From an uncultured Chloroflexia bacterium (GTDB lineage: Bacteria > Chloroflexota > Anaerolineae > Caldilineales > Caldilineaceae): 64,000 bases of DNA. Shown here one piece after another: positions 11,798 to 55,315 of this stretch (position 1 is its first letter; the number at the start of each line of letters is the position of its first letter). The notes beneath the pieces are model-generated. The model was not told the origin of the DNA. It worked only from the letters and a program-made list of their open reading frames with translations, and searched no databases. The position numbers and the translations under genes are program-made. The stretch lies in NCBI GenBank assembly GCA_963765875.1, contig CAVXYK010000029.1, forward strand, positions 111,153-175,152, in the 5' to 3' direction.

Positions 11798-11993
11798 GAA
11801 GATGTTTGAAGTTGGTTGTTCCTTGGTTTTCGGTTGCTCTTACCTTTGTAGCCAATGGAGGGAAAAATGCATTGGTCAAGAAGATGGTGAAATCGTAGAG
11901 ACGCAAGATTTTGCGTCTCCGCTCGTCCATTCGACCCATTGTTTCATTCCAGCATGTCGTTGACCAATACACAATGGAGCAAAAAAGGATCGA

Positions 11994-12575: not shown

Positions 12576-12884
12576 GATGGCTTTGCATAGATGGAAAGTG
12601 TGGTTCTTGGCACTGACAGTGAAAATTGTAGCCGCCGGAATGTCACCTGTCAATCGCCGCGAACGCGGGTGCAGTTCACGCCAAAGGCGAGATCGTTTGG
12701 AATGACTTCCTGTCTTCTTCGACCACGTGTACTTCATCACGCGGCCAAACGCGGGCGATGTGCTTCGTGATAATTCGTGTCAGAATGGGATCCTTGTAGT
12801 CGGCTCACAAGTTTGCAACGAACCCTCGCGTCAGATGTACAATAGGTGAAACTCAATCAGACCACTCCCATCGGAAGGACCAGA

Positions 12885-19243: not shown

Positions 19244-19474
19244 ATGCAGACAGTCTCCAAGAGCAAATTGAAGGCCGAGATGTTGCGCATCTTCCGCGAG
19301 ATCGAAGAGTCCGGCGAAGAGTTGATCGTCACCGACAACAATCGTCCGGTGTTGAGTATCCGCCCAGTGTCACAGGGACGTAGCGTCGGGGAGGTCTTTG
19401 CCGATATAAGAGGCAAGGTCGTATTCCACGAAGACCCAAACACGCCAACATGGGATGACTGGGAGGATCTGTAG
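19244..19474 (+). CDS. Type II antitoxin, Phd/YefM family
   Basis: MQTVSKSKLKAEMLRIFREIEESGEELIVTDNNRPVLSIRPV. The stop abuts the PIN toxin start. Confidence 0.75.
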   Translation: MQTVSKSKLKAEMLRIFREIEESGEELIVTDNNRPVLSIRPVSQGRSVGEVFADIRGKVVFHEDPNTPTWDDWEDL

Positions 19475-19856
19475 ATGGTCGTCCTCGATACCGCTGCGCT
19501 TGATCTACTGGACGCTCGAAGCGGAAACCCTCTCGCCGGTAGCAGCCAAAGCCATTACTGAAAACCGGCAGGTCATCGCCAGTGCCATCTCTATCTGGGA
19601 GATCGGCTGGAAGACAAAACTGGGCAAGCTCACATTACCGATTTCAACGCGTGAATTCGCAACACGCCTCACTCAAGTTCAGAACGTAGAAATCGTGGCG
19701 GTGGACTCCGAAACCTGGCTGCGCAACGTAGCGCTGGATTGGGATCATCGCGATCCGGCTGACCGCACCATCGTGGCCACGGCTGAACTACGCGGCTGTC
19801 CCCTGGTGACGCCGGACCGGCGGATACGCGACTTCTACGACCTGTCGATCTGGTAG
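19475..19856 (+). CDS. vapC: Type II toxin, PIN domain (VapC-like), one apparent frameshift near 19497-19503
   Basis: The ATG at 19475 gives MVVLDTAAL, then the frame of ORF 19455..19856 gives IYWTLEAETLSPVAAKAI...DPADRTIVATA. One extra base in GCGCTTGATCTACTGG separates them. Confidence 0.7.
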
Positions 19857-19877
19857 AGCGAGGGGCGTTTCAGCTCT

Positions 19878-21253: not shown

Positions 21254-21426
21254 CGCAACATTTAGGTGACAAACACATGCCGACCCCCTAAATATTGATT
21301 CTGCTATTTCAATTGTACCTCAACACTTGCCTTGAATGCCCTGGAATCGCGGTTGGTAGGCGCCGAAAAGGCTGCGAACCTGTAGGACAGAAACATGGTC
21401 ACTTCCAGTTCGCAATCGTCATGATT
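21254..21426 (-). promoter_or_regulatory. Putative CRISPR leader
   Basis: Non-coding, lower-GC stretch between the corrected cas2 stop (21427-21429) and the first repeat. Position is the only evidence. Confidence 0.45.
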
Positions 21427-21717
21427 TCAGGCAATCAAGGGTCCCTTCCAGATCAATGCTGCCTTTGTGCCTATATGCTCAACACGATTCCGCCATTCAT
21501 TGCCCAGATAGTAGAACCGAGGCTGTCCTTTTCAGGATCTATCAACTCCACCAATCGATGCTTCAACTGCCTCATCTGGGCTGCATCCACCAGGCACTCA
21601 AAGACCGAGTTTTGGACGCGCTGCCCGTAATTTTGACACTGTTTTGCCACCAATCGCAACCGTCGCTTTCCGGCATTGCTGGTGGTATTCACGTCGTAGG
21701 TGATCAAGAACCATCAT
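21427..21717 (-). CDS. cas2: CRISPR-associated endoribonuclease Cas2, at least two apparent frameshifts
   Basis: MMVL (ATG 21717), then ITYDVNTTSNAGKRRLRLVAKQCQNYGQRVQNSVFEC (ORF 21471..21707), then the third-frame end TKAALIWKGPLIA* (stop 21427-21429). Confidence 0.75.
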
Positions 21718-21741
21718 CGGCGTCTAGCCTCCTGCCAATGC

Positions 21742-22773
21742 CTAATTCCAGAAGAAGGGTGGATATGCGTCGATGTCTCCGCGCAGATGACGGGCCAGCA
21801 ACATGGCTTGGACGTGGGGAATCAGCCCAAAGGGAATGCGTTCTTTCAGATATGGGTGCATAATCTCATCTTGCTTGCGTTTCTGCCAGGCCCCCAACAC
21901 CGCCTTGCGGGTCTCGTCATCCATCAGAGTACCGCCGCTTTCCTTCTGAACAAAGCCCTTGCCGCTAACTTGCTTGCGATTGACCAGGGTGAGCGCCAGC
22001 CGGTCGGCAAAGACCGGACGAAGCTCTTCCATCATGTCCAAGCGCCAGAGAGGGACGGCCAGGACGATCAGCGTGCAAGAAGCCCACATACGGGTCAAGG
22101 CCCACAGTCTCCAGGGCGGACGCAACTTCATAGGTCAGCAGAGTGTAGAAAAACGAGAGCAGCGCGTTCATGTTGTCCTGGGGCGGACGTCGAGTGCGTT
22201 TCTCAAAGAAGAAACTCTCCTTCTGATGCAGAATCAGTTGCCCAAAGACCCCAAAGTAGCGTTTGGCCGCGTTGCCTTCCAGTCCTCGCAATGTCTCCAC
22301 CGACTCTCTCCCTCACGGATGGCAGATCAGCATCTCCTTAAGAAATCAGATGTAGTTCGCAAGCCGGCACATCGACCAGCAAGGCATGGTCACGAAGTGC
22401 CCGGTCGATAACCGTCCGGCTGTTGGCAATCTTCCCCAGCAAAGCCGACTGGCGATGGTTGCACTGGCGGCTTCGTTTTGAGAAAGATCATATTGCTTCT
22501 TGCGCAGCAGCAGATTGCCCTTTTCTTTGCCCGCTAACCCGTGCCAGAAAGCGCCCGCTGGGCTTGAGAAAGCAGAGCCCGATGTTGCGTTCGGCACATG
22601 CGCCCATCAGCGCCGGGCTCACCCCGGATAGTTGAAGCAGACGATGTTTTCCAGGTTGTGCAGCGGCAGGCGCATGGACGTTGTATCATCCTTCTTGACC
22701 ACGACGTTTTCACCATCCAAGGACACATAGGCTTTGGGTGTGGTGACATAGAGAACGTTGGCCAGTTTTTCAT
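21742..22773 (-). CDS. cas1: CRISPR-associated endonuclease Cas1 (I-C type), at least four apparent frameshifts
   Basis: Fragments [81 protein letters not shown] and [10 protein letters not shown] are spread over ORFs 22534..22773, 22346..22597, 21965..22300 and 21742..22131. The first shift is in the A5 run right after the ATG. Confidence 0.85.
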
Positions 22774-22825
22774 TGCCTACGCCCTTTCGATCTGTTGGCG
22801 GATGTATTCAGAGGCCGGCACAACT

Positions 22826-23448
22826 TCATTCTTGCAGATGGGGCAGGCAGATATCGGCCAGCGAGCAGGACTTGCACCCCTTGAACGGTTTTACTTTCGG
22901 CGTGTATCCTCGCTGAAAGTACGCGTGCATTTCCTTGGCCGCCTTGCGCACCAGGTCGCGCAGTTCGTCATGTGAGGTCCACAGCCACACGGCGGCGGGT
23001 TTGGCCGTAGTAGAGATAGCCGGTAGGGATCGAGATCGCCAGCATCTCCTCCAGGCAGATGGCCTGAGCGCATAGCTGGGCCTCGTCGCTGCGATCATGT
23101 TTCTTCTTGCCCCGCTTGTATTCCACCGGCGCGGCGAGAAAAGCAGCCCTCGTGCCCAGGCAGGTGGACGCCATCCGGCGATTCGGTGAACTCCACCACA
23201 TCACATATCCCCGACAGACCGAGCGAGCGTGAAGCCACCGGCACCGACCGGGCGACGATCACGCCCTTGCGCTTTTCGGTGAAGAAGGGATCGTCTGCCC
23301 GGCGGTGCATGATTTGGCCCTCGACGGTCAGCGCATTCTCCTGCCACTGACGCTCCACATGGATCAGCGCCCACTGCCGGCGGCAGAAGAGGAAGTGTTG
23401 GATGCCCGAGAGGGGCAGCATATCTTCGGGACTGGTTTCGGTGATCAT
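22826..23448 (-). CDS. cas4: CRISPR-associated exonuclease Cas4, at least two apparent frameshifts
   Basis: LSGIQHFLFCRRQWALIHVE (N-terminal Cys), EYKRGKKK, QLCAQAICLEEML, C-terminal CKSCSLADIC cluster. Pieces lie in ORFs 23095..23448, 22968..23204 and 22826..23098. The ATG overlaps the cas7 stop (ATGA). Confidence 0.8.
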
Positions 23449-23865
23449 AGTTTTTCGATGACGGTCACACCATCGGGCGCGCTGTCTGCGTCGATACTCA
23501 CGTCGTAATCGGTAAAACTGCGCGGCACCACGACATCTGGCTTGCGCGTGACCTTGACCAGATCAAACAACTGATGCGAAGGAGCATTGCCCAGATCGCT
23601 GTCATGTTTGAAGACGATCAGGGTGCGGCTCGCCATCTTGCCGCGGGCCGCCGAGTGGTCGTGTTCGAACATGTTGACCAGAGCATCCCACAGCAGATCC
23701 AGGTCTTCATCGGAAAATCCGGTACCTTTGGTGGGTGCGTTGGCGAGTTTGGCCGAGACATAGCCCTCTGCACGATATAGGCCATAGGGGACATAGTGCT
23801 TGCGGCCCATTTCTGTTGTCTTGTCTTCGTCCTTTCGCGTCACAGTGACTCGGTTATGGAAGCCT
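23445..23865 (-). pseudogene. cas7: cas7 (Csd2) C-terminal fragment, separated from the N-terminal part by an IS element
   Basis: VTVTRKDEDKTTEMGRKHYVPYGLYRAEGYVSAKLA...FSDEDLDLLWDALVNMFEHDHSAARGKM...LGNAPSHQLFDLV, typical of the I-C Cas7 C-terminus. Confidence 0.85.
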
Positions 23866-25455
23866 CTAGCAGTTTGTCGGAGAGAACCGACAGTCGGCTC
23901 TCTGACGGATCGGTGGTAATGTGAGAGCATGGCAAAGAAACGTAAGTTCAGACAAGCGGACTATGAGGCAACGGAAAAGACCCAAATCACGTTGGGCGAA
24001 GCGTTGCCGGAAGATCATCTGGCTCGATTCATCGTGAGCGTAGTCAGCCTGCTCGATTTGAGCAAGGTCTATGGTCAGTACAGCGACCGTGGGGGAGCGC
24101 CGTATGCGCCAGAAGTGCTGCTGGGGCTGTTGCTGTATGGCTACGCAACCGGGACCTTCAGTTCTCGCAAACTGGAGAGGGCGACGTACGAATCGATTCC
24201 GCTTCGATACATTGCCGGGAACATGCATCCAGACCATGACACTATTAACCAGTTTCGCAAGGAGAATCTGGAGACGCTGAAGGGATTGTTTGTACAGGTG
24301 CTGATGCTTGCCTACATATTGGGCCATGTGAGACTGGGCAACATCAGCATTGATGGCAGCAAGGTCCATGCCGATGCGTCCAAGAGCAAGGCGGTGAGTT
24401 ATGGACGTATCTTGTCGATGGAGAAGCGCTTGCAACAAGAGATCAATGAGTTGTTCGCCCTGGCTGAAAAGGCGGACAGCGAGCAACCGGACGATTTTGA
24501 TATCGACGATGAGATCGGACGGCGCACCAAGAAGCTGGTGGATCTTGCCCAAGCCAAGGCAATGATAGAAACGATGGCCGCTCAACGCCATGCTCAAGAA
24601 CAAGCCGAGTATGAACAGAAGATGGCTGCTCGCAAGGAGAAGGAAGAGCAAACTGGCAAGAAGACGCCAGGTCGTATCCCTCAGCCACCTGAACCCGGCC
24701 CGCGTGACAAAGACCAGGTCAATTTCACCGATCCAGAGTCTCGTATCATGAAGAATGGCAACAACAAGGCTTTCCAACAATCGTACAATGCCCAGGCTGC
24801 GGTGGAACATGAGAGTCGCCTCATTGTGGGCAATACTCTTTCCAATCACCCCAACGACAAGCAGGAAGGTGTGGCAACGGCCCAGGCGATCCCGGCTCAA
24901 CTGGGTACCCCGAATGCGGCGGCCATGGATGCCGGCTATTTCAGCCCTGGGACAATCCAGGGCTTTGAAGCCATGGGCATCGAACCTTACATTGCTGCAG
25001 GTCGAGACAGCCATGCGTTCGATCGGCGGACGCTTCTGGAGGGTGAGCCAGAACCCCCGCCCGAGAATGCCAGCCACAAGACCAAAATGCACTACAAACT
25101 GTGCACCGAAGCCGGCAAAGCCATCTACAAACTGCGCAAGAGCACGGTTGAGCCGGTCTTCGGCATCATCAAGGAGATCATGGGTTTCCGACAGTTTTCC
25201 TTGCGCGGACTGACCGCGGCGGCCGGCGAATGGAATCTTGTTTGTTTGGCCTACAATCTGAAGCGTCTTCATGTATTACACACGACCTGATTCTGCGCGC
25301 CCTCAGACGGGAGGGCTGAGAAGATGCGACGCTCTGGAGCATGCATATCCGTGATTATGTCTACTCCCTGCCTGCTATCGAGTCGATTTTGTCAAAAAAC
25401 ATGGCAACAGGCTCAACTATGTTCAATCTATGCTGTCTCTCCGACAGCCTGCTAG
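23866..25455 (+). mobile_element. IS1182-family (IS5-like) insertion sequence, 1590 bp
   Basis: Imperfect terminal inverted repeats CTAGCAGTTTGTCGGAGAGA (23866..) and the reverse complement of ..TCTCTCCGACAGCCTGCTAG (..25455). CTAG at both ends. Single transposase ORF. Flanks are the two halves of cas7. Confidence 0.85.
23929..25290 (+). CDS. IS1182-family DDE transposase
   Basis: 453 aa, uninterrupted. N-terminus LPEDHLARFIVSVVSLLDLSKVYGQY...GAPYAPEVLLGLLLYGYATGTFSSRKLERA (InsH-N/DUF772-like). The C-terminal DDE region ends VEPVFGIIKE...F.LRG...EW.LVCLAYNLKRL. Confidence 0.9.
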   Translation: MAKKRKFRQADYEATEKTQITLGEALPEDHLARFIVSVVSLLDLSKVYGQYSDRGGAPYAPEVLLGLLLYGYATGTFSSRKLERATYESIPLRYIAGNMHPDHDTINQFRKENLETLKGLFVQVLMLAYILGHVRLGNISIDGSKVHADASKSKAVSYGRILSMEKRLQQEINELFALAEKADSEQPDDFDIDDEIGRRTKKLVDLAQAKAMIETMAAQRHAQEQAEYEQKMAARKEKEEQTGKKTPGRIPQPPEPGPRDKDQVNFTDPESRIMKNGNNKAFQQSYNAQAAVEHESRLIVGNTLSNHPNDKQEGVATAQAIPAQLGTPNAAAMDAGYFSPGTIQGFEAMGIEPYIAAGRDSHAFDRRTLLEGEPEPPPENASHKTKMHYKLCTEAGKAIYKLRKSTVEPVFGIIKEIMGFRQFSLRGLTAAAGEWNLVCLAYNLKRLHVLHTT

Positions 25456-25919
25456 TTGTGAAATCGGATCAATGCTGCGCGAGAAGTTGATTTGTACTGG
25501 ACCTCGAACGATACCTGCTGGAACATCGGTGCTCATCACAGCACCAAAGGTGCGATATCGTAGAAGTTCGCACACATCCATTTACGCAATTCCTGAATTT
25601 TCTGCACATTGTTCCGGATTGCCTTTATTTCATTCTTTGAGGCAGGAATTCGGTGTAACGGTAGCAACGTATGCTGCCTCGTGTTGAGTATTCAAAAGGA
25701 TATTCTCTTTGACATAGATTTGATGCCCTGGAGCATCTTCATGTACCAGTTCCGCATAGTTGCGGATCTTGCGCTTCAAGCAGACATCGGTGACGATGCC
25801 GTGGCCGGTTTCTGGATCAATCCGTGGCATATTTCCGGCATCCGGATCGCCGTTGGGGTTACCGTTTTCCACATCGTAAACAGGACAAATTCGTAGCGGT
25901 TGTTGATAGGGGTAGTCAT
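25456..25919 (-). pseudogene. cas7: cas7 (Csd2) N-terminal fragment with additional frameshifts
   Basis: ATG 25919 ([14 protein letters not shown]), then [38 protein letters not shown] (ORF 25630..25872), then [39 protein letters not shown] up to the IS boundary. Confidence 0.8.
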
Positions 25920-25963
25920 GGTCTGATCTCCTGTGAAGATAGCTATTGGTTCTCGGGTTCTGA

Positions 25964-27816
25964 TCAGGATCGATTCAGAGGGCGGTTCGTTTCCTTTTTG
26001 GTGAAGAAGGCGGCGCGTTGATGGTAGTAGCCCAGCACGAAAATACCCTGTTCATCCAGGGTCAGCCGTGAAGGAATGGGGTTCTTCTCAACGTCGAGCA
26101 AATTCAGAATGTCTTGAATACGTCGATCGCTGGCATAGCCATATTCTGCCTTGGCAATGTGATGCTGAGAGAGTCGCAGAAGTGTAGGGAACACGGTCCT
26201 GGGCGAAGCGCAGGCCGAAGTGAAGTAGCGATCTTTGATGCTGGCGTTGACGTCACCGATGGCTTCTCCCTGAACTTTTTCCAACACGGCGAATAGGCGG
26301 CCCAGCAAATAGGCTGGAATTGTGGATTGCTCGTTGAGAGCCATGGTCAGTACCTCCTCGAATGGGTTTTGGGGTTGAAGGCGATATTTGCGCAACAAAA
26401 ATGCCTTGATCGCCGCGGCGCGCACGTAGTTAATTTTGTGGATGCCTTTTCCGAGTCATCCATGTCGGCACGGATGCGGTTGATGATGGCGTAGTAAAGG
26501 GCCGCCGGATACGGTGCGTTGGTGAGAATGGAACGAGAAACAACTCCTGCCAACAAGGGAGATGCATTCTTGTCTTTGGATTTCTTGGAGATGGTCTCGT
26601 TAAGAATTCGCCATACAGTCAGATAGGTTGGCTGATCATCGTACTCCTTGACTATCTCCAAGATCCCGATAGTGCGCCATGATATTCTGGACAATCTTCT
26701 CGAAGGGATCTGCGATGAAGAAACGCACCGAAACCCGTGCTGCATTGGGGGCCAGGCCAAGGATGTAAAAGCGCGGGTTTTCGTCCCTCAAATCTGCCAG
26801 CAAAGCATCCAAATCAAGCATTTGAGTGCGCTTGACCTTCTCGGATACTGTTTTCAAGGCGGCTTCGGCCTTTTTCCGTCCAGCCTGTTTTGCGGTCGCT
26901 TCATCCTCAACATATGTAGGATCGAAGATGCTGGCGAAGGCGGTTTCATAGACCCGGCTGTCGCTCTCGGCCCAATAGACCACCGTCGTGTCACCCAGAT
27001 AGAACTTCTTGTTCGGGTTGGCATCTGACAGCAAGTAATTCAGAACCGTCGTATAGGCGAAAGTCGCTTTTTCGCTGACCGGCGAATTGATACCCTGAGA
27101 ACGATTGTATGATTCGTAAGCAGCAGCATTGAAGCCTACTAATGTTGCCCCGCTTGACTGTGCCCCTCGTACCCGTTTCAAGCTTGGATGCAAACGTGCG
27201 ATGGATCGATCTTTCTCCAGTCACGAGGCATTGCATGTGATTCGCTCTCCTGTCCAGCTCTGGTGTTCTTCCCAAACCTCACGAATGCGCGGATCATTGT
27301 GTGCAAACGCACCGTTAATCAGAAAGACTAGATTTCCACCTGCCATAAGGGCGTCCAGGTTTCCGGCTATAGCAGGATAGTTGGCGGCCATGCGCTGGAT
27401 CATATTGTTCAAGAAACGCAAGCATGGCACGAGCAGGCTCGCAATCAACACCACTCAACAGATTCGTAATGCAACTGACGAAACGCACTCAAAGCGGTCC
27501 TGGCTGTATTCAGGCTTCTTATCGTCCCTTTCTGAAATCCCCAGAACATACACGCTGTTGTCCCACAGGAAATTTGGCGGCGACATTGACTGAGCGCTTG
27601 ACTTGGCCCGGCACAACCATCGGTCGCGGCACCTCCACCATCTTCTTGCCGCGCTGTTCCTGCGTAAACTGCGGCAGAATATCCAGCAACTCGCCCTGTG
27701 CTGAAATAGTTAAGTGCAAAGCTGACTCCAACCGTACTGTACCCAAACGGGGCGATCTCAGTTTTGGGATCTTCTACCAGAATGTCGTAATACCGATTCA
27801 AAGCTTGCAGAATCAT
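25964..27816 (-). CDS. cas8c: Type I-C large subunit Cas8c (Csd1), at least six apparent frameshifts
   Basis: [17 protein letters not shown]... at 27816, with an ATGA overlap with the cas5 stop. Collinear pieces in ORFs 27445.., 27519.., 27221.., 26991.., 26636.., 26347.. and 25964..26425 cover about 617 codons in changing frames. Position between cas5 and cas7. Confidence 0.75.
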
Positions 27817-28475
27817 TGCCGCACCTCAACTTCGGTCAGATCAATTACACCGTCTTGCATGGTCGCTTTGAAGAACTGAGGCCTAATATCCTGAGGATCT
27901 CGAAAGTCCAGGTCATAGAGCATCCAGCCCAACTCTTGTGTGCCGCTCAACGGGCTTTGAGGAATATTCCCCCCTTCGATAAGGTCCACCTTTGCGCCAA
28001 ACTCTCGGGTTCCCAGATAGGGTGCGTGGTAATGTTGCCCTTTGCGCAGACGGCGCAAGGCAATGTTGTAGTGCTTCTCCACCGTGTCATCTGGTCCGGC
28101 TTGTTCAGGTACAGGTTCAAAGTGGGCTTCCACAATGTAATCCACATTTTTCAGCACGAGGGCGGCGCGCTGTTGACGGGCATCGGTTGCATCCAGAAAA
28201 AACGGATCTGTCGCTCCATTCATGCGTCGCTCCGCCTCACGAGTTGAAATCTTCTCGCTCACCTCGTTGCGCCGGATATTGGTGAATTCGATCTCACTCA
28301 GTACATGGATCTTGTCGATCACCCAACGGATGGCCGGTTTCCAGTAGATGGCCTCGATGACACCTCGTGCCGCCGATGGCGTGATGACATCGTAGCTCAC
28401 CCGTTCGACCTTCATTTCGGGTCGAGTGAACAGAGCGTAATCGCCACGGATGCGAATCGTGATTCCGTATCCCAT
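27813..28475 (-). CDS. cas5: Type I-C Cas5 (Cas5d/Cas5c) pre-crRNA endoribonuclease
   Basis: ATG 28475 preceded by AAGGAGG. MGYGITIRIRGDYALFTRPEMKVERVSYDVITPSAARGVIEAIYWKP. Uninterrupted. Confidence 0.85.
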   Translation of the reverse strand: MGYGITIRIRGDYALFTRPEMKVERVSYDVITPSAARGVIEAIYWKPAIRWVIDKIHVLSEIEFTNIRRNEVSEKISTREAERRMNGATDPFFLDATDARQQRAALVLKNVDYIVEAHFEPVPEQAGPDDTVEKHYNIALRRLRKGQHYHAPYLGTREFGAKVDLIEGGNIPQSPLSGTQELGWMLYDLDFRDPQDIRPQFFKATMQDGVIDLTEVEVRQ

Positions 28476-28498
28476 AAGATGAACCTCCTTTCTGGTCT

Positions 28499-31400
28499 TC
28501 AATCAAAGAATATGGCTTCCCCGCCACGACTTTCCGGGAGGACAAGCCCGGTTTGGGGATGGTAATAGTGCTTCATCCAATCTTCGTCTAACACATGGCA
28601 TACATCAGCGATTGTCTGAATGACACCCAGACTCTGCAAACTCTGAAATTCTCGTTCGTAAATGTTGACGGTGTACACCTGCAACTTGCGCAAGGTGCTA
28701 AACGGATAGAGCGTGTGCCGCAATTCCCGCAGCCGAATTTTCGCTTCTTTATCATACGGAATCACCACCGACACCGTATCGTCATCAATCAACTTGAAGT
28801 TTTCGGCCGCTGTTTTGAAATCGAAATCCAAGCTTCGGGAACCTTTGTCGAGAAAACTTAGAATTCTCCTGGCATCGAAACTGGCTTTATCATGCAGGGT
28901 GTAAAGACGGTCGTAGTAGGCCTCAATTGCCGCAATCGTCGTTGGATCCGTACTGAAATCACGCAGGGTACTCTTGGCCACAGCACCCGTCTGTGCGATG
29001 AAGATCGGCGTGCGCTTGATGAAGTCGGTCTTGGGGTCGAACACGAGCATTTCCCCGATCGATTGCTTACCTTCCCGATTGATTCGCCCTGCCGCCTGGA
29101 TGATTGAGTCCAATCCCGCCAGCGCACGATAGCCGACCGGGAAATCCACGTCGATCCCGGCTTCCATAACCTGCGTCGAGACGACGCGGCAGACGTCCCC
29201 GTCTTCAAGCCGTTGGCGGATTTCCGTCAGGATTACCTTGCGGTGTACCGGACACATCAAGGTTGAGAGGTGAAATCGCCCTTCCCCGACCAGTCCATCA
29301 AACAGCCCCTTGGCATGGCGACGGGTGTTGACAATACACAAAACCTGGCGCTGCGCTTCAAGCTTCTCCAGTAACTCTTGATCGGGCAGAGTTCCCAGTT
29401 CCTTCACCTGTACACGGCGATAGAAATCGAACAACTGTTGGGGATTGGGAGCCAGTTCCGTAAACTGCGTACTGTCTGGGAAGAATCGCTGCAAAGATGG
29501 TTGCGTGGCTGTGCAAAAGACTGTGCTGACTCCGTAATTATGCACCAATTCCTGAACAGCCGATAGGCTGGGTGTCATGTATTCTCGCGGCAGCGTTTGA
29601 GCCTCATCGAAAATGATCACGCTCTTGGCGATGTTGTGCAGTTTGCGCGCCCGTGATTTCTTGCTGGCAAACAGGGACTCGAAGAACTGCACATTGGTCG
29701 TAACCACGATAGGGATGTCCCAGTTCTCGGCAGCCAATCTCAGCTTCTCATGTACGTCGTTGGTCTCATCGTCTGATGTATGTCGCAGCCCCTCCCAATC
29801 AAAATTGGAATGGTGCTCCAAGATGTTTTCCTCTCCCAGTATGCCCAATGACTCCCTAAACACCGCAGCGTTTTGTTCAATGATGCTGGTAAAGGGAATG
29901 ACATAGATGACTCGCTTCAACCCGTGAGCAATGGCGTGATTGAGTGCAAAAGCCATTGAGGCCAGTGTCTTGCCGCCACCAGTCGGCACGGTCAAGGTGA
30001 AAAAGCCCGGATCTTGGTTGGCTTTAGCCCGGCAGGCGTGCAGGGTTTCGGTACGCTTGCGGTTGATGGGCGTTTGCGGATCCTCGAAACGCTGCAAATA
30101 TCGGTTGAATTGCTCAGCCAATGCCTCGATACTGGCATACTGACCGCGGGGCTTTTCGACCTCTTGCATATACCGTTCAGTGTCCAGCCAGTCGGCATCC
30201 ACCAAGGTAGAGAACAACATGCGCGTCAAGAAGGATATTGAAAAGCCTGGATATTCACGATTGACTTTTATGTGCAGGGGCTGGAATTGTAGTTGGTTGG
30301 CATCAAGTTCCGTGGCATAGGCGCTGTAGTCTTCCAGTTGTTTCTTCTCCCGCCGCGCCAGAAGGGTTCCATCCGCTTCCGTATCACCAAGGCTGCCATA
30401 GTCGGGCAGACCAGAATGGTGCCCAGCGATGCAGTAGGACAGTAACTCGGCATAGGTGTTATCGGGCTTTGCGGGGAATAGGCTGACTATTTCCCGTGCG
30501 CCGGCAGTAGCATGATCGACTCGCTTGTTCGAGCCGCGCAACCGATCCTGAAAAGCCTGCGAGTATTTGCCAATGTCGTGCAAAATCCCAGCTACTCGTG
30601 CCAGTTCGGACACACCGGCATCTCGCCCCAGCTCAAAAGCCAGATCGCCAGTTTGGAATAAGTGGTCTCTCAGCAACTGCCACTCTGATTCATCGATGCC
30701 GGGCTTCGAGTGGGCATAGTATCGCTCGTCGAAGGTTTTGAACGCTGAAACAGCGTACAACTCAGCCAGCTGTCGTGCTTCTCGAATCAGCGACTCCCGC
30801 AATTTTACCGGCTCCAACACTTCGACTTTGCTGCCCCACCCGCGTATCCACGGCAACATCTCCTGCGGTTCGGCTACCCAAGCCCGCCAGAGCAGACTGC
30901 CGTCCGCTTCCAACACGGTCTGCTGCGACTGATGCCAGCGCGTCTCCTCCACCCGCTTGGCCACGCGTGGATGGAACTTGAGCACCACCTCCACCGGCTC
31001 GGCCTCCGTGTACCAGATGCCCCAGGCGTTAGCGAGCTTGGCACGCGGGTCAAAATCATCAGGAATCTCATAGCTGTCTCGGAGAATCTCGGCCGAGCGC
31101 AGCCGCTCCACCTTGAAAGTGCGCACAGCGCTTGGCGGCTCACGCCAGCCGATGACGTGTGCAGTCTGACCGACGGCATACGGTTCGATGAAGTAGGGCG
31201 AAAAGGTGTACTCAAAGACCCGCCCGTCTTCCATCTGGTGACTCACCTTCACCTTGCGCCCCACGGACCACGCCTCGGTCAGCTTCTGCAGCACGTCCAG
31301 GTAGACCGGATCACGATAGGCCGCAGCCTCGTCCATCATTTCGGCAGAACGCAGCAGATGTCGGCTCACGTTGTTGTCCAGACGCCGCAAGGCCATGCCC

Positions 31401-31729
31401 AGCTTGCGTAGCGACGACGCAGCATGGGGGTTCTGTTTGTCCGTACGCGTTGCCAGCAGACGGGTCGCTAAATGGATGGCCATGATTTCATGTAGGCTGA
31501 AGGACGCTTTGGTCAGGTCGGCCGAGCGGTCCAACTTGAGCTTATTGCCGTCTAGATCATCTTCGTAGATGCTGGGCGGCAGATGATCCTTGTCCAGATA
31601 GCGACCAATGGTAGATCGGTTCACATTCAGGCGTCGGGCGATCTCGGCCCGAGTCATGCCCTCCGGGTGCGCCCAGAGCAGTTCCTCGATCTGCAACAGG
31701 CGTTGTGATTTCTCTTGTGCCCTGTTCAT
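28499..31729 (-). CDS. cas3: Cas3 HD nuclease/SF2 helicase with N-terminal HTH-WYL-WCX regulator-like extension (about 330 aa)
   Basis: Single 1076-codon ORF. N-terminus MTRAEIARRLNVNRSTIGRYL (HTH), VGRKVKVSHQMEDGRVFEYTFSPYFIEPYAVGQTAHVIGW...RTFKVERL (WYL-like). Then the HD domain (AGILHDIGKYSQAFQ, CIAGHHSGLPD), Walker A VPTGGGKT, DEAQ and QAAGRINREG. Confidence 0.9.
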   Translation of the reverse strand: MNRAQEKSQRLLQIEELLWAHPEGMTRAEIARRLNVNRSTIGRYLDKDHLPPSIYEDDLDGNKLKLDRSADLTKASFSLHEIMAIHLATRLLATRTDKQNPHAASSLRKLGMALRRLDNNVSRHLLRSAEMMDEAAAYRDPVYLDVLQKLTEAWSVGRKVKVSHQMEDGRVFEYTFSPYFIEPYAVGQTAHVIGWREPPSAVRTFKVERLRSAEILRDSYEIPDDFDPRAKLANAWGIWYTEAEPVEVVLKFHPRVAKRVEETRWHQSQQTVLEADGSLLWRAWVAEPQEMLPWIRGWGSKVEVLEPVKLRESLIREARQLAELYAVSAFKTFDERYYAHSKPGIDESEWQLLRDHLFQTGDLAFELGRDAGVSELARVAGILHDIGKYSQAFQDRLRGSNKRVDHATAGAREIVSLFPAKPDNTYAELLSYCIAGHHSGLPDYGSLGDTEADGTLLARREKKQLEDYSAYATELDANQLQFQPLHIKVNREYPGFSISFLTRMLFSTLVDADWLDTERYMQEVEKPRGQYASIEALAEQFNRYLQRFEDPQTPINRKRTETLHACRAKANQDPGFFTLTVPTGGGKTLASMAFALNHAIAHGLKRVIYVIPFTSIIEQNAAVFRESLGILGEENILEHHSNFDWEGLRHTSDDETNDVHEKLRLAAENWDIPIVVTTNVQFFESLFASKKSRARKLHNIAKSVIIFDEAQTLPREYMTPSLSAVQELVHNYGVSTVFCTATQPSLQRFFPDSTQFTELAPNPQQLFDFYRRVQVKELGTLPDQELLEKLEAQRQVLCIVNTRRHAKGLFDGLVGEGRFHLSTLMCPVHRKVILTEIRQRLEDGDVCRVVSTQVMEAGIDVDFPVGYRALAGLDSIIQAAGRINREGKQSIGEMLVFDPKTDFIKRTPIFIAQTGAVAKSTLRDFSTDPTTIAAIEAYYDRLYTLHDKASFDARRILSFLDKGSRSLDFDFKTAAENFKLIDDDTVSVVIPYDKEAKIRLRELRHTLYPFSTLRKLQVYTVNIYEREFQSLQSLGVIQTIADVCHVLDEDWMKHYYHPQTGLVLPESRGGEAIFFD

Positions 31730-31817
31730 TCGACACTTCCTTTGTGGTTGGTGGTTGTCGCTGTGAACAACTTATCACAGGGTGCTGCGATTTCCTGCAA
31801 CACCCCGTGAAATTGGC

Positions 31818-32027
31818 CTATTTCCGTCGGCCGAATGGCCAAAGACCGCCACGTTCATCCTGGCTGAAGAGGATACCGGCCTCTTCCATACCCGCCAGCC
31901 GATGGCCAATGGTCGATACCGCTACGTCCAGTTCTCTCGCCAACTCAGCCTGGGTTTTACCCGGATCGCTCTCGACTACCTGCGCCATTGTTTCATACTC
32001 ATTCTTGCTCTTGCGCCAAATACCCAT
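31818..32027 (-). CDS. Small winged-helix DNA-binding protein upstream of the cas operon
   Basis: MGIWRKSKNEYETMAQVVESDPGKTQAELARELDVAVSTIGHRLAGMEEAGIL, an HTH pattern. Start uncertain (track ORF 31818..32051). Confidence 0.5.
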   Translation of the reverse strand: MGIWRKSKNEYETMAQVVESDPGKTQAELARELDVAVSTIGHRLAGMEEAGILFSQDERGGLWPFGRRK

Positions 32028-32587
32028 TTTGCACCTCCATGTTGGGAACAATCGGACTCGTTGTCCGAACTATCCCCAGCATGGAGGTGACATGTTGCAC
32101 CTACTGCAACACGCATAGATCAATTCCGAATACTCATCAAGTTCACCGGATTAGGCACAAGTCCATTCAAATAAGCCGGGATGACCGTTCAGTAGGCACG
32201 CCCACGTGCCGGTCGCTCCCGTGTAGAGCCGCAAGTGGGCGTGCTCACTGGACGTTATTTGAATTGTCTTGGGATTAGGCAGGCTCAAGCGAATGAAGCA
32301 GCAATCCGCTCCATTCCAAATCTGCTGTAGTATTGCTCCTCCAATAACAAACCACGCACTCCGGCAATCGCCGGGTGCGTGGGTCAAGAACATTTCCGTT
32401 GGCCAGAAACTCAAACCTCGCGCGGGAGATACGCATGATCACCCTTTCGGGGTGTGTGGAGCGGACACTCGACGGCGGCGGCAGTGCTGTGCCGGTCAAG
32501 TCTGTGGTGCTATGGATTCAGTATAGTTCTCCTCAAAAAAGGCGTCAATCAGGATTCCAGCGTTGGAGGGTTGTGACCCTCTGAACG

Positions 32588-32683
32588 ATTGTGGGCTGGA
32601 CAACCCGACCTCCGGGAGGTGTCTGAGAAACCTCTGGCTCGTACACCGTTTGTGGGCACCTCCCGGAGGTCTAGCCCCACAAT
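32588..32683. repeat. Long-hairpin repeat family 'ACCTCCGGGAGGT', copy 1
   Basis: ATTGTGGG..ACCCGACCTCCGGGAGGTGTC .. CACCTCCCGGAGGTCT.GCCCCACAAT. Closely related copy at 48133..48233 and a variant at 47001..47099. Confidence 0.8.
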
Positions 32684-32779
32684 TCTTCAGAGAACCAGGG
32701 TTGTTTGGCGATTGACACACATGTTGATGCGCCATATAATATCGCATGAGACATCACAAATTGTTCGAGCGAGGCAAAC

Positions 32780-33169
32780 ATGGCACGATATCCCCTAAAC
32801 CTACCTCAGCAGCTCAAACAGGATGCAGAGACCTGGGCTGGGAAACAGGGCATCTCCCTCAACAAATTTATCCTCTGGGCGACAGCAGAGAAAGTCGGTT
32901 CGCTGAACCAACAGCTTGACGATCCTGCATTTCCGCAGATCACCTACCGCCGAGGCGCAAGCGGTATTCCCACGCCGATTCTGAGAGGCACAGGGCTACG
33001 TGTGCAAGCGGTGGCCATCGCCCATGAACGGTGGGGCATGCAGCCTGCCGAAATCGCTGACGAGTACGGGCTTACGCAACGCCAGATCAAAGAAGCGCTG
33101 GCCTTCTTTGACGCGCATCGCGCAGAAATCGAAATGCACATAGCCGGAGAGCAGCGGCTGAGCGGCTGA
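32780..33169 (+). CDS. Putative antitoxin: RHH/HicB-like N-terminus fused to a DUF433-like domain
   Basis: YPLNLPQQLKQDAETWAGKQGISLNKFILWATAEKV (RHH-like), then RRGASGIPTPILRGTGLRVQAVAIAHERWGMQPAEIADEYGLTQRQIKEALAFF (DUF433-like). Confidence 0.55.
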   Translation: MARYPLNLPQQLKQDAETWAGKQGISLNKFILWATAEKVGSLNQQLDDPAFPQITYRRGASGIPTPILRGTGLRVQAVAIAHERWGMQPAEIADEYGLTQRQIKEALAFFDAHRAEIEMHIAGEQRLSG

Positions 33170-33181
33170 ACGGTTGAACAG

Positions 33182-33535
33182 ATGGCAATCCCCCGGCTAC
33201 ACCTCGATGCAGACGTTTCCTATCGCACCCTGCACATGGCCTTGAATGAACGAGGCCATGATGTAACGCGCACGCCATGTGAGTGGATGCCCATGGATGC
33301 CGATGATGAACAGCAGTTGCTGGAGGCCGGCGCACGTGGGCGTTGTATCATGACGTTCAACATCGGCGATTTCATGCGCCTGGCGAAGACACACCCTGAC
33401 CATGGCGGCATCGTGCTGGCTCAGCAGGTGGACTGGTCGCTCGCATCGCTAATTTCTGCGCTGGACAACTTGTTGACACAGACTGACGCTGCGGATTGGC
33501 CCGGTCAAGTGCGTTGGCTCACCGAGTGGAAATAG
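33182..33535 (+). CDS. DUF5615-like (PIN-like) putative toxin partner of DUF433
   Basis: 117 aa, 12 nt downstream of the DUF433-like gene. HLDADVSYRTL...MTFNIGDF pattern. Family from memory only. Confidence 0.45.
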   Translation: MAIPRLHLDADVSYRTLHMALNERGHDVTRTPCEWMPMDADDEQQLLEAGARGRCIMTFNIGDFMRLAKTHPDHGGIVLAQQVDWSLASLISALDNLLTQTDAADWPGQVRWLTEWK

Positions 33536-33544
33536 AGCTTCCTC

Positions 33545-35356: not shown

Positions 35357-35785
35357 CGCACCTCCAATCAGGGATGTGCTGCTTGCTGCTTGCTGCTTGC
35401 TGCTTGCTGCTTGCTGCTTGCTGCTTGCTGCTTGCTGCTTGCTGCTTGCTGCTTGCTGCTTGCTGCTTGCTGCTTGCTGCTTGCTGCTTGCTGCTTGCTG
35501 CTTGCTGCTTGCTGCTTGCTGCTTGCTGCTTGCTGCTTGCTGCTTGCTGCTTGCTGCTTGCTGCTTGCTGCTTGCTGCTTGCTGCTTGCTGCTTGCTGCT
35601 TGCTGCTTGCTGCTTGCTGCTTGCTGCTTGCTGCTTGCTGCTTGCTGCTTGTCTGCTGTGCTGCTTGCTGCTTGCTGCTTCTCGAATGAGGATAAGCCAC
35701 AAGGAGGACTTGTCAACCCCGAGACTCTCCAAATGCGGCAGCCCAATCTGAGCGGAAACCTCACGCAGCAAGCAGCACGCAGCAG
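34871..35785. repeat. Inverted-repeat-bounded intergenic cassette A (carries the four-helix-bundle gene and heptamer array)
   Basis: CTGCTGCGTGCTACTTGCTGCTTGCTGCGTGA at 34871..34902 and TCACGCAGCAAGCAGCACGCAGCAG at 35761..35785. Fills the gap from 1 nt after the 35787.. gene stop to 4 nt before the RBS of the 34855 gene. Confidence 0.85.
35377..35680. repeat. Heptanucleotide tandem repeat (TGCTGCT; AAGCAGC on the minus strand), about 39 perfect plus about 4 degenerate copies
   Basis: Perfect 7-nt periodicity at 35377..35650. All frames translate to QQAASSK / LLAACCL, which produces several artefactual ORFs. Confidence 0.95.
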
Positions 35786-40791: not shown

Positions 40792-43700
40792 CATGAACAA
40801 CCCGCCAACCCATCTGCATGTGCATTCGCACTTCAGCCTATTGTCAGCCACACCCTCGATCCAATCGCTATTGCGACCGCGCCGTGGCCGATAGTCTGAC
40901 CCATCTGGCGCTCACAGACACTAGTTCACTCTATGGGGCAGTCCAGTTTTCCAATGCTTGCCAGGCAGTCGGCATCCAGCCCATCATCGGTATGTCGACC
41001 CGCGTTCAATCGCTTGACACCGAAGAGGTGTCAGAGCCCGGTCGCATGCTCGTGCTTCTGGCCACCGGCCAAGCCGGCTACCGCTCACTCTGCCGGCTCT
41101 CTTCGCAATTGCAGGCCAGGCCAGACCGCGAAGAAAGGATGGTTCGAGGACTCGACTGGGCGACATTGAAGGAAAATGCGGACGGGATCATCTGTCTTTC
41201 GGGTGGACGACAGGGCTGGATCGAATGCTGTCTGCGCGCCGGAGAAAACATGGGCGCTGCACGATATGCGGGTCAACTCGGCGGCATATTCGGCAGCCGG
41301 GCCTACCTCTCACTCGAACTGCATGGCGAGAAAGACCACTCGACGGCCCGTGCCATCATGGCGCTGGGCAATCGCTTTGGACTACGTACGGTCGCTGTGC
41401 AACCGGTCTACACAATGCTGCCATCGGACCGCGCTCACCTGCGACTGCTGCGCGCCATCGACCGCAACTGTCCGCTGACCGAACTGCCGGCCGACGCCAT
41501 GCCGGACGCCGGACTGGACTCCAGACTGGACGGAGATGAAACGTCCATAGGACTGCACTGGCTCTCACCAGCCGAGCTCACCCAGCGCTTCGACGCTTTC
41601 CCCGATGCGCTGGCCGCCGTCGAAGAGATTACGTCGCTCTGCCAACCGGCCCTGCCCGACAGCAATCCCATCTGGCCCAGGCCTGCCTTGCCATCTGACA
41701 TCCCAGCCGACACACCTGTGGAAGAGGCGTTGTCCACCCTCGCAGCCGCCGGTCTAGCAGATCGATACGCGCGGTAGAGACGCAACATCTTGCGTCTCCG
41801 AAACGCCGTCAGACAGGTCGGCCACAGATAGTGCAGCCGACGGAGACGCAAGATGTTGCGTCTCCGAAACGCCGTCAGACAGGTCGGCCACAGATAGTGC
41901 AGCCGACGGAGACGCAACATCTTGCGTCTCCGAAACGCCGTCAGACAGGTCGGCCACAGATAGTGCAGCCGACGGAGACGCAGGATGTTGCGTCTCCGAA
42001 ACACCGTCAGACAGGTCGACCACAGATAGTGCAGACGACGGAGACGCAAGATGTTGCGTCTCCGAAACACCGTCAGACAGGTCGACCACAGATAGTGCAG
42101 ACGATGGAGACGCAAGATGTTGCGTCTCCGAAACACCGTCAGACAGGTCGACCACAGATAGTGCAGCCGACGGAGACGCAAGATATTACGTCTCTACCGA
42201 TGTGACGGACCGACTGACGCGTGAACTAGCCGTCATCAACGAACATGGATTTGCACCCCTATTCCTGGTCGTGGCGGATGTCGTGCGCCATGCACGCGAG
42301 CAGGGAATCCCGGTCAGTACACGCGGCAGCGTGGCCAATTCGCTGGTCGCCTACTGCACCGGCATCACCACCGTCGATCCCATCGAGCACGATCTACTCT
42401 TCGAACGTTTCTTGAATCCGGCGCGCATCACGCCGCCCGACATCGATCTGGATTTTTGCAGCCGTCGCAGAGACGAGGTGCTCAACTATGTGCGCGAGAC
42501 CTACGGCGCTGACCATGTTGCCCTGGTCGCAACCATCAGCACCATGCGCCCCAAGTCCGCAGTGCGCGAGACGGGCAAGGCCTATGGCCTCGACAATGCC
42601 GCGATTTCACGCCTGACACGCCTGCTTCCCGGCGGCTGGCATCCGGACCCTCGCCGGCGAGACCGGCGCAAGTTGCCCGACATTCTGGAACAGGTCGCCG
42701 ATCCGACCGATCGGCAGGTGCTGAGCGACGCCTACGCCATCGTCGGCACGCCCCACCACCTGAGCATCCATCCTGGCGGCGTGGTCATCACGCCAGGGCC
42801 CCTTACAGACCGCTTGCCCTTGCAGTGGACGGCCAAGGGATTCCTCATCACCCAGTTTGATCACAACGATGTAGAGCAGATCGGCCTGCCCAAGATCGAC
42901 CTGCTGGGCATCCGCGCCCTGACGGTGCTGGCCGATGCCACTGCTTTGGTGCGCAAACACCACGACGCCGGTTTCACGCTTGATCAGATCGATGAAGGCG
43001 ATCCTGAGACGGAGCAGATGCTGAGTCAGGGCGATACTGTGGGCGTCTTCCAATGCGAGTCGACGGGGGCCAGACGGACGCTGCGCCAGCTCAAGGTACG
43101 CAGCGTCCGTGACCTGGCTGTGGCCAACGCCTTTTTCAAGCCGGGTCCGGCCACGGGCGGCATGGCCCAGGCCTTCATTCGTCGCTATCGTGGCGAAGAG
43201 CCGGTCCACTACCTGCATGAAACCTTGACGCCGATTCTGAATCCGACCAAGGGCGTGCTGCTCTTCCAGGAACAGATTTTGCGTGTGGCCAGGGAGATTG
43301 CCGGATTGAGTTGGGAAGAGGCCGACCATCTGCGCCGGGGCATGAGCAAATTCCAGACTGCTGAGATGAAAGCCATGCGTGAGCGTTTTGTGGCCGGTTG
43401 TGTGCAAGCGAAGCCGGACGGCCCCGGCTTCTCACCGACCCAGGCAACGACGCTTTGGGAGCAGGTCGAGGCCTTCGCCGGTTACGGCTTCAACCAGGGG
43501 CACGCCACGGCCTATGCCGATGTGAGCTATCGATCGGCCTACATCAAGGCACACTGGCCGGCCGAGTTCTGCGCAGCGCGTCCAGTCGATTGGGGCGGTT
43601 TTCATCACCAGGCGATCTACATTGCCGAAGCAAAACGGCTGGGCATCCCGGTGCGACCGCCTCACGTCAATCAGAGCGGTCGCAAGTTCACCTTGACACG

Positions 43701-44364
43701 CCACAATGGCATACCTGTGCTGTGGATGGGGCTGGGACAAGTTCGAGACCTGCGCCGCACGTCCGTTGCCCAGATCATGGCGCAACGAGCAGAGCGCCCT
43801 TTCGTGGATCTGGCCGATCTCTTGCGCCGCGTGCAATTCCAGGCCAAGGAGATCCGCCATCTTATCCAATGTGGAGCGCTGGATGGGCTGGGCGACAGCC
43901 GTGCGGCCATGCTCGCGCAGTCGATCGAGCTGTGGCGTGCCGGCGGCGCACAACAGATGGCCTTCAGCTTCACGGCTGAGCCGCCGCCGCCCGAAACTGC
44001 CGAGGACCGCCTCCAATGGGAGCGCCACCTCCTGGGGCTGCCGCTCACCGATCATCCCTTGGATGTCGCTGCGGCGTATGCCCCTCCCGTTGGATTACCG
44101 GTTGTCCCGCTGCAAAACGTTGCAGACAGTGCAGGCAGACCCTGCGTGGTGCGCGCGGTTCGTCTGCCCGGCTGGACCGGCGGCAAAGGTTTTTTTGTCG
44201 GGGATCGCCGGACATACGCGGTGGCCATCGCCGCAAAAGGGCTTGCCTCGCCCAAGCCATGGCAACCGCTGGCGTTGCGCGGCCGTTGGCGGGTAGATGA
44301 ATGGGGCGGAGGTTGGCTGCAAATGGATGGGATTGAGATGTTGGAAAAGCAGGAAGGTGAGTAG
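40792..44364 (+). CDS. dnaE: DNA polymerase III alpha subunit (DnaE family) with two apparent frameshifts and an internal tandem-repeat insertion
   Basis: ATG 40792 MNNPPTHLHVHSHFSLL (PHP) shifts near 40870 into ORF 40818..41777. This stops at the TAG of the GTAG repeat head. The C-terminal frame (open from 41758) runs through the repeats into DRLTRELAVINEHGFAPLFLVVADVV...RGSVANSLVAYCTGITTVDP...FNQGHATAYA (ORF 42202..44364). Confidence 0.85.
41774..42197 (+). repeat. Tandem array of 6 x 66-nt units plus a terminal hairpin, bounded by GTAG ... CTAC, inside dnaE
   Basis: Unit GAGACGCAA-GATG/CATC-TTGCGTCTC CGAAACRCCGTCAGACAGGTCGRCCACAGATAGTGCAGMCGAYG. Units start at 41777, 41843, 41909, 41975, 42041, 42107 and 42173. 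Confidence 0.95.
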
Positions 44365-55074: not shown

Positions 55075-55315
55075 CGTCCGCTGCAAAAAGGGATCTTGAC
55101 AAGAATTCACACAGATTATCACGAATTTTCTCTCTGGGGCGACGACACAATTCGTAAAAATACGTGACCATTCGTGACTCCACTGCAAAAAGGGATTGGA
55201 CACGAATTAACACAAATCTGCACGAATTCTCCCTCTGGCGCCACACTTCATTTCGTGTAAATTCGTGACAATTCGTGTCCAGAAAAGGCTTTTTGCAGGA
55301 GAGTCATTCGTATCA
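55075..55315. repeat. Two tandem ~105-bp units plus a terminal inverted repeat between convergent GT39 genes
   Basis: CTGCAAAAAGGGAT..GACA.GAATT.ACACA.AT....CACGAATT.TC.CTCTGG.G... occurs twice. Closing GGCTTTTTGCAG is inverted to the CTGCAAAAAG heads. Rich in ATTCGTG words. Confidence 0.7.

Follow-up and report, generated by a model that had tools for sequence, protein, structure and literature searches.

Repetitive extragenic palindromic (REP) sequences are non-autonomous palindromic elements associated with RAYT/TnpA_REP transposases (REP-associated tyrosine transposases of the HUH-Y1 type), and in E. coli the bacterial interspersed mosaic element BIME-2 is made of tandem REPs that alternate in orientation and are separated by fixed linkers. 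Here we analyze a cluster of REP hairpins lying within dnaE, the gene for the alpha subunit of DNA polymerase III, of an uncultured Chloroflexota bacterium; the gene is carried by a 64-kb stretch of contig CAVXYK010000029.1, referred to below as the window. Two groups of described elements are the closest to it. REPs tagged by a terminal GTAG have been found inside genes, many of them devoted to replication and repair and including dnaE2 and the dnaE of R. conorii; their GTAG ends often supply TAG stop codons, and tandem clusters that incorporate flanking DNA have been described, the largest of which encode 43-82 aa (Di Nocera, De Gregorio & Rocco 2013, BMC Genomics 14:522, PMC3733652). The transposases of TnpA_REP subclass 2.4 (RAYT group 4), which are about 194 aa long, carry the motifs NH[IFV]H, WQ and YIxNNP and are scattered over Cyanobacteria, Bacteroidetes and other phyla, have “double foot” REPs, with a 5’ GT[AG]G and a 3’ C[TC]AC, which also occur in frame within the transposase gene (Quentin et al. 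2018, BMC Genomics 19:475, PMC6006769).

The kind of element is therefore one that has already been described, and the dnaE array is a new and unusually large case of it. The interpretation that we consider probable is that a GTAG double-foot REP cluster resides in the dnaE linker, where it was amplified in tandem and is tolerated, and that the frameshifts of the deposited gene are probably consensus errors.

Structure of the array

The array extends over positions 41774-42197, at the junction of the PHP and palm domains of a DnaE of ~1,040 aa, and consists of six 66-nt units followed by a terminal hairpin. Each unit is composed of a 22-nt hairpin and a 44-nt spacer, and the six together (41777..42172, plus strand) comprise 396 nt, or 132 codons. 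Tandem Repeats Finder (TRF) delimits the repeat at 41777-42194, with a period of 66, 6.3 copies, 95% matches and no indels. GTA precedes the first hairpin, so that a GTAG foot begins at 41774 (GTAGAGACGCAACATCTTGCGTCTC, 41774..41798, plus strand), and TAC follows the last one, so that a CTAC foot finishes at 42197 (GAGACGCAAGATATTACGTCTCTAC, 42173..42197, plus strand). The stem has a core of 9 bp, or 11-12 bp counting its flanks, and encloses a loop of 4 nt that reads CATC in units 1 and 3, GATG in units 2, 4, 5 and 6, and GATA in the terminal hairpin. As CATC and GATG are mutually reverse-complementary, the loop is found in both orientations. An initial annotation of this DNA had already described the six units, the terminal hairpin with these boundaries and the two loop orientations, and TRF, a pattern search and the presence of both loop sequences bear this out.

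That search, for GAGACGCAA-N4-TTGCGTCTC with up to 2 mismatches, returned seven matches in the array and one further match in the rest of the 64-kb window, at 11898-11919, while zero matches are expected by chance (100 shuffles). The additional match is a solo REP (GTAGAGACGCAAGATTTTGCGTCTC, 11895..11919, no strand assigned) with a 5’ foot only, the GTA starting at 11895, and it sits between the minus-strand open reading frames (ORFs) 10754-11797 and 11994-12740; the initial annotation had placed it 1 nt off, at 11897..11918. The spacer is present in six copies, which are 95-100% identical to each other, all of them in the array and nowhere else in the window. The units fall into two groups, 1-3 and 4-6, that differ at linked positions; two of the inter-unit differences are synonymous (ACG/ACA, GAC/GAT) and two are nonsynonymous. 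Folded as single-stranded DNA, the array region has an energy of z = -14.5 relative to shuffled sequences.

A permissive Rfam search of 41600-42400 gave just sub-threshold chance matches to microRNA and small RNA models, and a literature string search with the two hairpin half-sites retrieved BsmBI cloning primers and nothing else. A CRISPR array was considered and rejected, given that all six spacers have the same sequence and that the genuine type I-C array of the window has a different repeat.

Insertion site and nearest relative

In the N-terminal part of the gene, the matches to Pfam PHP and to the DnaE models run to profile position 311; in the C-terminal part, matching starts at ~314-321. 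The array thus falls precisely between PHP and palm, and hardly any coding sequence is missing; the site corresponds approximately to residue 376 of Thermus aquaticus Pol III alpha. The closest proteins are “DNA polymerase III subunit alpha” sequences of ~1,024-1,060 aa from metagenome-assembled genomes (MAGs) of Anaerolineae, Caldilineaceae and Promineifilaceae. The initial annotation had suggested comparing DnaE orthologues at this junction. In ~85 of them, single polypeptides throughout, a poorly conserved linker of 6 to ~21 residues separates ‘GL..RYG’ from ‘RL..EL.AI’; the insertion site is therefore a naturally length-variable linker. The array is present in none of these orthologues, nor is the hairpin-encoded motif RDAxxCVS.

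The nearest relative, P0001, with a protein identity of 93%, is encoded on L001, a 264-kb ENA/NCBI contig that shares synteny and about 89% nucleotide identity with the window. At the orthologous dnaE codon, L001 has one REP, a perfect 28-nt palindrome (GTAGAGACGCAAGATCTTGCGTCTCTAC) with GTAG at 9899 and CTAC ending at 9926, and its N-terminal frame continues through the element as ...GLADRYA-RRDARSCVS-TDVTDR. The occurrence of a single in-frame REP at the same codon indicates that the hairpin is older than the split of the two lineages, and the 396-nt expansion is, as far as the compared sequences go, specific to the lineage of the window. With the frames restored, comparison of the window with L001 gives a dN/dS of 0.136 in the PHP half, where dS is 0.52, and of 0.107 in the polymerase half, where dS is 0.32; at ~0.1 in both halves, these values indicate that dnaE stayed under purifying selection with the hairpin inside. 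The dnaE/REP junction pattern had no match in JGI metagenomes, and in a further relative, P0002, the contig begins past the junction, which is therefore not covered.

Reading frames and frameshifts

In the deposited sequence, the gene is divided among three frames, and tblastn with the orthologues passes through frames 2, 3 and 1. The true start is the ATG at 40793 (MNNPPTHLHVHSHFS), and the 5’ end that it opens, with the HxH motif of the PHP domain (40793..40872, plus strand, frame 2; MNNPPTHLHVHSHFSLLSATPSIQSL), was recognized by alignment to L001 and by tblastn with residues 4-24 of P0003. A first 1-nt insertion relative to L001, on the plus strand near 40873, separates this start from the remainder of the gene; the frame is restored by any deletion within 40864-40881, and the coordinate is thus approximate. 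The N-terminal ORF of the initial annotation, with its ATG at 40818, is an artefact of this shift. The PHP-domain part follows in frame 0 (40874..41772, plus strand; Pfam PHP E=3.7e-23, NCBIfam DnaE positions 28-311), ends in ...AAAGLADRYA(R), and terminates as ...GLADRYAR* at the TAG of 41775-41777. Compared with L001, the window contains an extra G at 41773 (41773..41773, plus strand; GCGCGGTAG versus GCGCGTAG), because of which the TAG of the REP is read as an in-frame stop.

The downstream polymerase frame is open from 41758 through the array, as had been noted initially and as its translation confirms, reading (DA[RTG][CS]CVSETPSDRS[AT]TDSA[AD]DG)n into ...VTDRLTRELAVINEHGF. Stops are absent across the array from three of the six frames, two of them forward, so that openness by itself is weak evidence. 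This frame has no start codon within the array, the earliest being the GTG at 42202. The remaining dnaE, with the palm, thumb, fingers, HhH and OB-like end, is in frame 1 (42198..44364, plus strand; Pfam DNA_pol3_alpha, DNA_pol3_finger and HHH_6), and the deposited annotation calls from that GTG a separate ORF of 720 aa (P0121, stored with M).

When both bases, at ~40873 and 41773, are removed, a single open ORF of 1,189 codons results, without in-frame stops or larger deletions. The initial annotation had proposed that a single 1-nt correction within 41758-41775 would suffice; L001 lacks exactly the G at 41773, within that interval, but two corrections are required. Indel errors in the assembly consensus are in our view the most likely cause of the two frameshifts, because neighboring genes are also frameshifted and the CRISPR repeats of the window vary in homopolymer length. 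A 536-aa protein and an FGE-sulfatase are intact in L001 and frameshifted in the window, and L001 in turn is interrupted at points where the window keeps its frame, which gives both assemblies the look of consensus sequences prone to indels. Of the 21 CRISPR repeats, about half have a C6 or G6 run that is longer or shorter than in the consensus, and just a 184-aa fragment is left of Csd1. The real dnaE is probably one ORF of 1,189 codons.

We find hardly any room for a programmed +1 ribosomal frameshift at CGG-TAG, or for a gene that is naturally divided between a PHP protein and one comprising the polymerase core. As deposited, the N-terminal frame does stop at the TAG with the C-terminal frame at +1, and the annotation does call a separate 720-aa ORF; but a slip from CGG to GGU would allow no re-pairing, L001 is continuous without the extra G, the C-terminal frame is startless until the GTG at 42202 and has no suitably spaced Shine-Dalgarno sequence, the shift at ~40873 would require a separate explanation, and the orthologues are all single polypeptides.

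The locus also carries a lesson for annotation. In noisy long-read MAGs, a single-base error can turn the GTAG foot of a REP into a TAG stop, with the consequence that annotators split a polymerase gene that is probably intact. In L001, the N-terminal part of dnaE was never called as a gene. In both assemblies, errors or mutations adjoin the palindrome, which may reflect basecalling trouble at hairpins or at methylated GATC.

Class of the polymerase

If the frameshifts were real, this would be a recently inactivated dnaE, perhaps a dispensable DnaE2-like paralogue, in which the array expanded freely. We regard this as unlikely, and of the two readings offered by the initial annotation a disrupted paralogue is the less likely one; the dN/dS is low on both halves, at 0.11-0.14, and no in-frame stops or larger deletions remain after the removal of two bases. 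The presence of two frameshifts in one gene of the window and of a third in L001 just past the REP speaks for inactivation, while the similar frameshifts in the neighbors of both assemblies and the homopolymer noise in the CRISPR repeats speak against it, as does an array length that is an exact multiple of 3.

The class of the enzyme bears on the same question. The orthologues score 698-740 bits against the DnaE1 model NF004226 (cut-off 1002) and 644-650 bits against the error-prone model NF004225 (cut-off 939), so that even the full-length ones remain under the DnaE1 cut-off (740 vs 1002 bits), but with the DnaE1 model ahead by about 90 bits. The family has no C-terminal tau-binding domain (CTD), its proteins stopping about 100 aa past the HhH; the CTD is absent from all DnaE2 but from just a minority of DnaE1 (PMC3919608). 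The PHP motif reads TDT instead of TDH, a partial fit to DnaE2, but a clamp-type motif conserved as Q-x-A-F-x-F at the expected place begins with Q, as in DnaE1, and not with the proline typical of DnaE2. Some Chloroflexi have a DnaE1 plus a DnaE2, and the reported REP-tagged polymerases are mostly DnaE2 (PMC3733652), both of which favor a paralogue. Within 10 kb, neither imuA nor imuB was found in the window, L001 or L121, which argues against one, though split cassettes exist. Judging from these sequence features, it is plausible that the gene is essential. The initial annotation had called the gene essential, which was an assumption: the family is without the tau-binding CTD and scores under the curated DnaE1 cut-off.

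An intein or split-intein DnaE was rejected, as Pfam and NCBIfam show polymerase domains only and the insert is a 22-aa low-complexity repeat.

Distribution of the REP across genomes

The hairpin pattern GAGACGCAA-N4-TTGCGTCTC was scanned against 185,579 genomes, one per species; the matches listed are a lower bound, and the source genome of the window is not among them. The hairpin is present in at least 119 loci from more than ten phyla, where chance would give, by a rough estimate for 18 fixed bases in that much DNA, about ten loci. Among the matches listed, most hosts are Bacteroidota, followed by Planctomycetota, Chloroflexota (at least 9 loci), Acidobacteriota, Desulfobacterota, Myxococcota, several groups of the candidate phyla radiation (CPR), Spirochaetota and others. 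In these matches, GTA stands directly 5’ of GAGACG in 94 of 150 copies and TAC stands at the 3’ side in 94 of 150, each with a chance expectation of about 1.6%, and 56 of the 150 have both feet. In the consensus, GTAGAGACGCAA-N4-TTGCGTCTCTAC, each strand of the hairpin carries a GTAG foot: the GT[AG]G foot, its reverse complement C[TC]AC and a short palindromic stem (about 6-13 bp) are all present. By these features the hairpin belongs with the “double-foot” GTAG REPs.

More than ten phyla thus share a single exact REP, GTAGAGACGCAA-N4-TTGCGTCTCTAC (L002-L120), whose hosts range from CPR through Bacteroidota, Planctomycetota and Chloroflexota to Leptospiraceae. As a rule, a REP is confined to one lineage. 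The cross-phylum breadth suggests a horizontal spread of the cognate subclass-2.4 RAYT or a strong constraint on its recognition site, and this reach may be of interest for the evolution of RAYTs and REPs.

An all-vs-all clustering of the ORFs of these loci (at least 119) revealed a sole shared neighbor of the hairpin, a protein of ~180 aa found in at least 5 loci. Two profile matches, both short of the cut-off, point to its nature: the best in NCBIfam, “REP-associated tyrosine transposase”, has E=1.2e-15 and 57.6 bits where 80 are required, and a weak one to Pfam Y1_Tnp has 21 bits where 23 are required. The representative in L008, of 179 aa, contains PNHFH, EWQSRYHDH and YIFNNP, the features of TnpA_REP subclass 2.4, and hairpins stand on both sides of its gene (1187 and 1845); within the RAYT-like gene itself, a hairpin lies in frame in L078 and L108. 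The idea that the hairpin travels with genes for 23S rRNA intervening sequences (23S-rRNA-IVS) had arisen from a PF05635 gene near dnaE and from hairpin pairs ~370-390 nt apart; it was rejected, since the ORFs between the hairpin pairs were unconvincing and the clustering showed the RAYT-like protein only.

Arrays and in-gene copies in other genomes

Other loci repeat the arrangement gta-(hairpin-spacer)n-hairpin-tac, each with a spacer of its own. In a Muribaculaceae MAG (L117, 5777-5956), three 52-nt units and a terminal hairpin form an intergenic array, L114 has four hairpins, and a Mucilaginibacter MAG (L075, 3273-3505) has a run of ~14-nt half-hairpins (GATTTCGCGTCTCT)n between two feet. 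Many loci, e.g. L112 and L120, hold doublets with reverse-complement loops.

These loci and the relative L001 bear on the idea that assembly produced the dnaE array or inflated its copy number and that the true locus has one hairpin or fewer units, which seems very unlikely to us. The assembly is demonstrably noisy, a (TGCTGCT)x42 repeat of the window has about 4 copies in L001, and the array is found in no second assembly. Yet the units are non-identical, and the linked differences between units 1-3 and 4-6, together with the alternating loop orientation, are not the pattern of an expanded collapse; TRF finds no inter-unit indels, and the outer GTA/TAC feet are exact, as they are in unrelated short-read assemblies such as L117.

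REPs also lie within coding sequences in this set: among the matches listed, 30 of 151 hairpins fall inside ORFs that measure 200 aa or more from stop to stop. Each of them is read in F1 or F3, as VETQxxASL or RDAxxCVST, the third frame having a TAG. The hosts include two full-length AcrB-family transporters, a PurL-like FGAM synthase, a leucine-rich repeat protein sorted by the type IX secretion system (T9SS), a subtilase and T9SS-tailed proteins, with REPs at L090 5777, L034 4257, L099 3430, L020 3390, L067 3837, and L013 3698 and 6099. In the T9SS proteins, the REP immediately precedes the C-terminal sorting domain (VETQxFASLP).

The encoded peptide

The insert is an acidic, Ser/Thr-rich 22-aa repeat whose segments include SETPSDR and SATDSAADGDAR. 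It has no homologue among 5.8 billion proteins, and AlphaFold assigns it a pLDDT of 24-32, the polymerase core being mostly above 85 and the pTM 0.77. We conclude that the insert is a probably neutral segment, predicted to be disordered and tolerated by the surface linker.

A co-opted array, either as a flexible acidic linker between the PHP domain and the polymerase or as a cluster of RNA or DNA hairpins regulating dnaE, is in our judgement quite improbable. The array is in frame with a unit length that is a multiple of 3, two of its few unit differences are synonymous and two are not, and its predicted fold is very stable (z = -14.5). Against this, it is missing from the relative with 89% identity and from all other orthologues, its peptide is without homologue and predicted to be disordered, the substitutions are too few to demonstrate selection, and the same REP is inserted in many unrelated genes. 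The initial annotation had proposed a REP-like array that was either tolerated or exapted as a protein linker. The first part is supported by the feet, the link to a RAYT, the copy in L001 and the variable linker; for the second we see no evidence, the peptide being without homologue and predicted to be disordered.

A stronger version of the tolerated insert, in which the frameshifts are errors, the enzyme is the sole replicative polymerase and a disordered acidic REP-derived insert of ~140 aa lies between PHP and palm, is possible, and we put it forward tentatively. If this is true, no protein reported so far would have a larger REP-encoded segment, and this one would lie in a core replicase; since the separation of two close lineages, tandem REP amplification would have supplied an essential enzyme with new linker sequence.

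Proposed history of the locus

We propose that one REP entered the variable PHP-palm linker in an ancestor shared by the window genome and L001. The position is shared by the two; the entry itself would have occurred by RAYT-mediated single-strand transposition, in frame F3 (R-D-A-x-x-C-V-S-T), one of the two stop-free frames of the REP. In the lineage of the window, a 44-nt segment would then have come to be enclosed by two hairpin copies, and the resulting 66-nt unit would have been amplified to six, with slippage or unequal exchange between hairpins as the likeliest route and RAYT cleavage and rejoining as a possible one. The variant groups 1-3 and 4-6 fit a stepwise duplication. Because 66 is divisible by 3 and the frame is stop-free, the array adds 132 codons (~140 aa of REP-derived sequence in all). 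Selection on the host gene would let through only units that are read in a stop-free frame and whose length is a multiple of 3; the intergenic array of L117 has a period of 52 nt.

Several observations weigh against this history of a tolerated REP cluster in an intact gene. The dnaE frameshifts may be real: there are two in 3.6 kb, somewhat denser than in neighboring genes, a low dN/dS is compatible with a very recent inactivation, and L001 has a 1-nt indel of its own at 9938-9960, in a locally divergent stretch eight codons past its REP. In an assembly as noisy as this, an array of 400 bp may also have been given a wrong number of units. With tblastn, no RAYT homologue was found in the 64-kb window or in the 22-kb L001 locus; the REP loci found are two in the window and one in these 22 kb of L001, so that a high copy number and a cognate transposase are putative for this genome. 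The source of the spacer was not recovered, with no exact match in JGI metagenome contigs and a best match of 12 nt in the window or any fetched locus. The low pLDDT of the repeat is partly expected, because the AlphaFold alignment omits it.

Other features of the window

A CRISPR array of type I-C at 19878-21253 has 21 repeats (GTTTCAATCCACGCCCCCCGTGAGGGGGGCGAC) and unique spacers; the run-length variation of its repeats looks like consensus error and can be used as a built-in indicator of assembly quality. The array belongs to a segment of ~14.7 kb (18814-33540) that is missing from the syntenic L001 and that also carries type I-C cas genes, all on the minus strand: Cas3 (28499-31729), Cas5d (27813-28502) and the Csd1 fragment (26636-27193). 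The cas locus was gained by one lineage or lost from the other. The GC content is lower (0.515-0.525) at 24-30 kb.

A heptanucleotide microsatellite (TGCTGCT) at 35377-35680, with 43 copies and 98% matches according to TRF and about 4 copies in L001, lies on the 5’ side of the PF05635 gene (23S rRNA-IVS / four-helix-bundle) and constitutes a second large tandem expansion particular to the window genome or its assembly. At 55077-55277, a 101-nt direct repeat is present twice, with 79% matches and many short internal repeats (ACAATTCGT...).

Comparison with known systems

The locus shows how far a selfish palindrome can expand within a core replication gene with the reading frame kept, six in-frame copies having arisen since the divergence from a relative that has one, and it extends intragenic REPs to Chloroflexota. 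The GTAG REPs (PMC3733652) share with it the GTAG foot by a palindromic stem, the supply of TAG stops and the in-frame location in genes for DNA synthesis and repair. The stem here is AGACGCAA, and the comparison with their 24 families covers the features just named. The differences are that the REP-derived stretch is about 140 aa long, versus 43-82 aa, and that the host is a Chloroflexota MAG. The subclass 2.4 double-foot REPs (PMC6006769) resemble it in having both feet and a long stem, in occurring in many phyla with Bacteroidetes prominent, in lying in frame within the transposase gene, and in being linked to a protein of ~180-200 aa with NH[IFV]H, WQ and YIxNNP; here, in contrast, the transposase link passes only through other genomes with an identical hairpin, none having been found in the window or L001.

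As in BIME-2 of E. coli, a REP and a constant linker are reiterated with hairpins in alternating orientation, but BIMEs are extragenic and combine two REP types with two linkers, whereas the dnaE array has one spacer, always in the same orientation, and nothing but its 4-nt loop is inverted.

The Rickettsia palindromic elements (RPEs; cited in PMC3733652) are likewise palindromes that lie in frame in housekeeping genes and whose extra peptide is tolerated; they are, however, specific to Rickettsia, mostly 100-150 bp long and single, while the element in dnaE is a REP of 22-28 nt that has been amplified in tandem.

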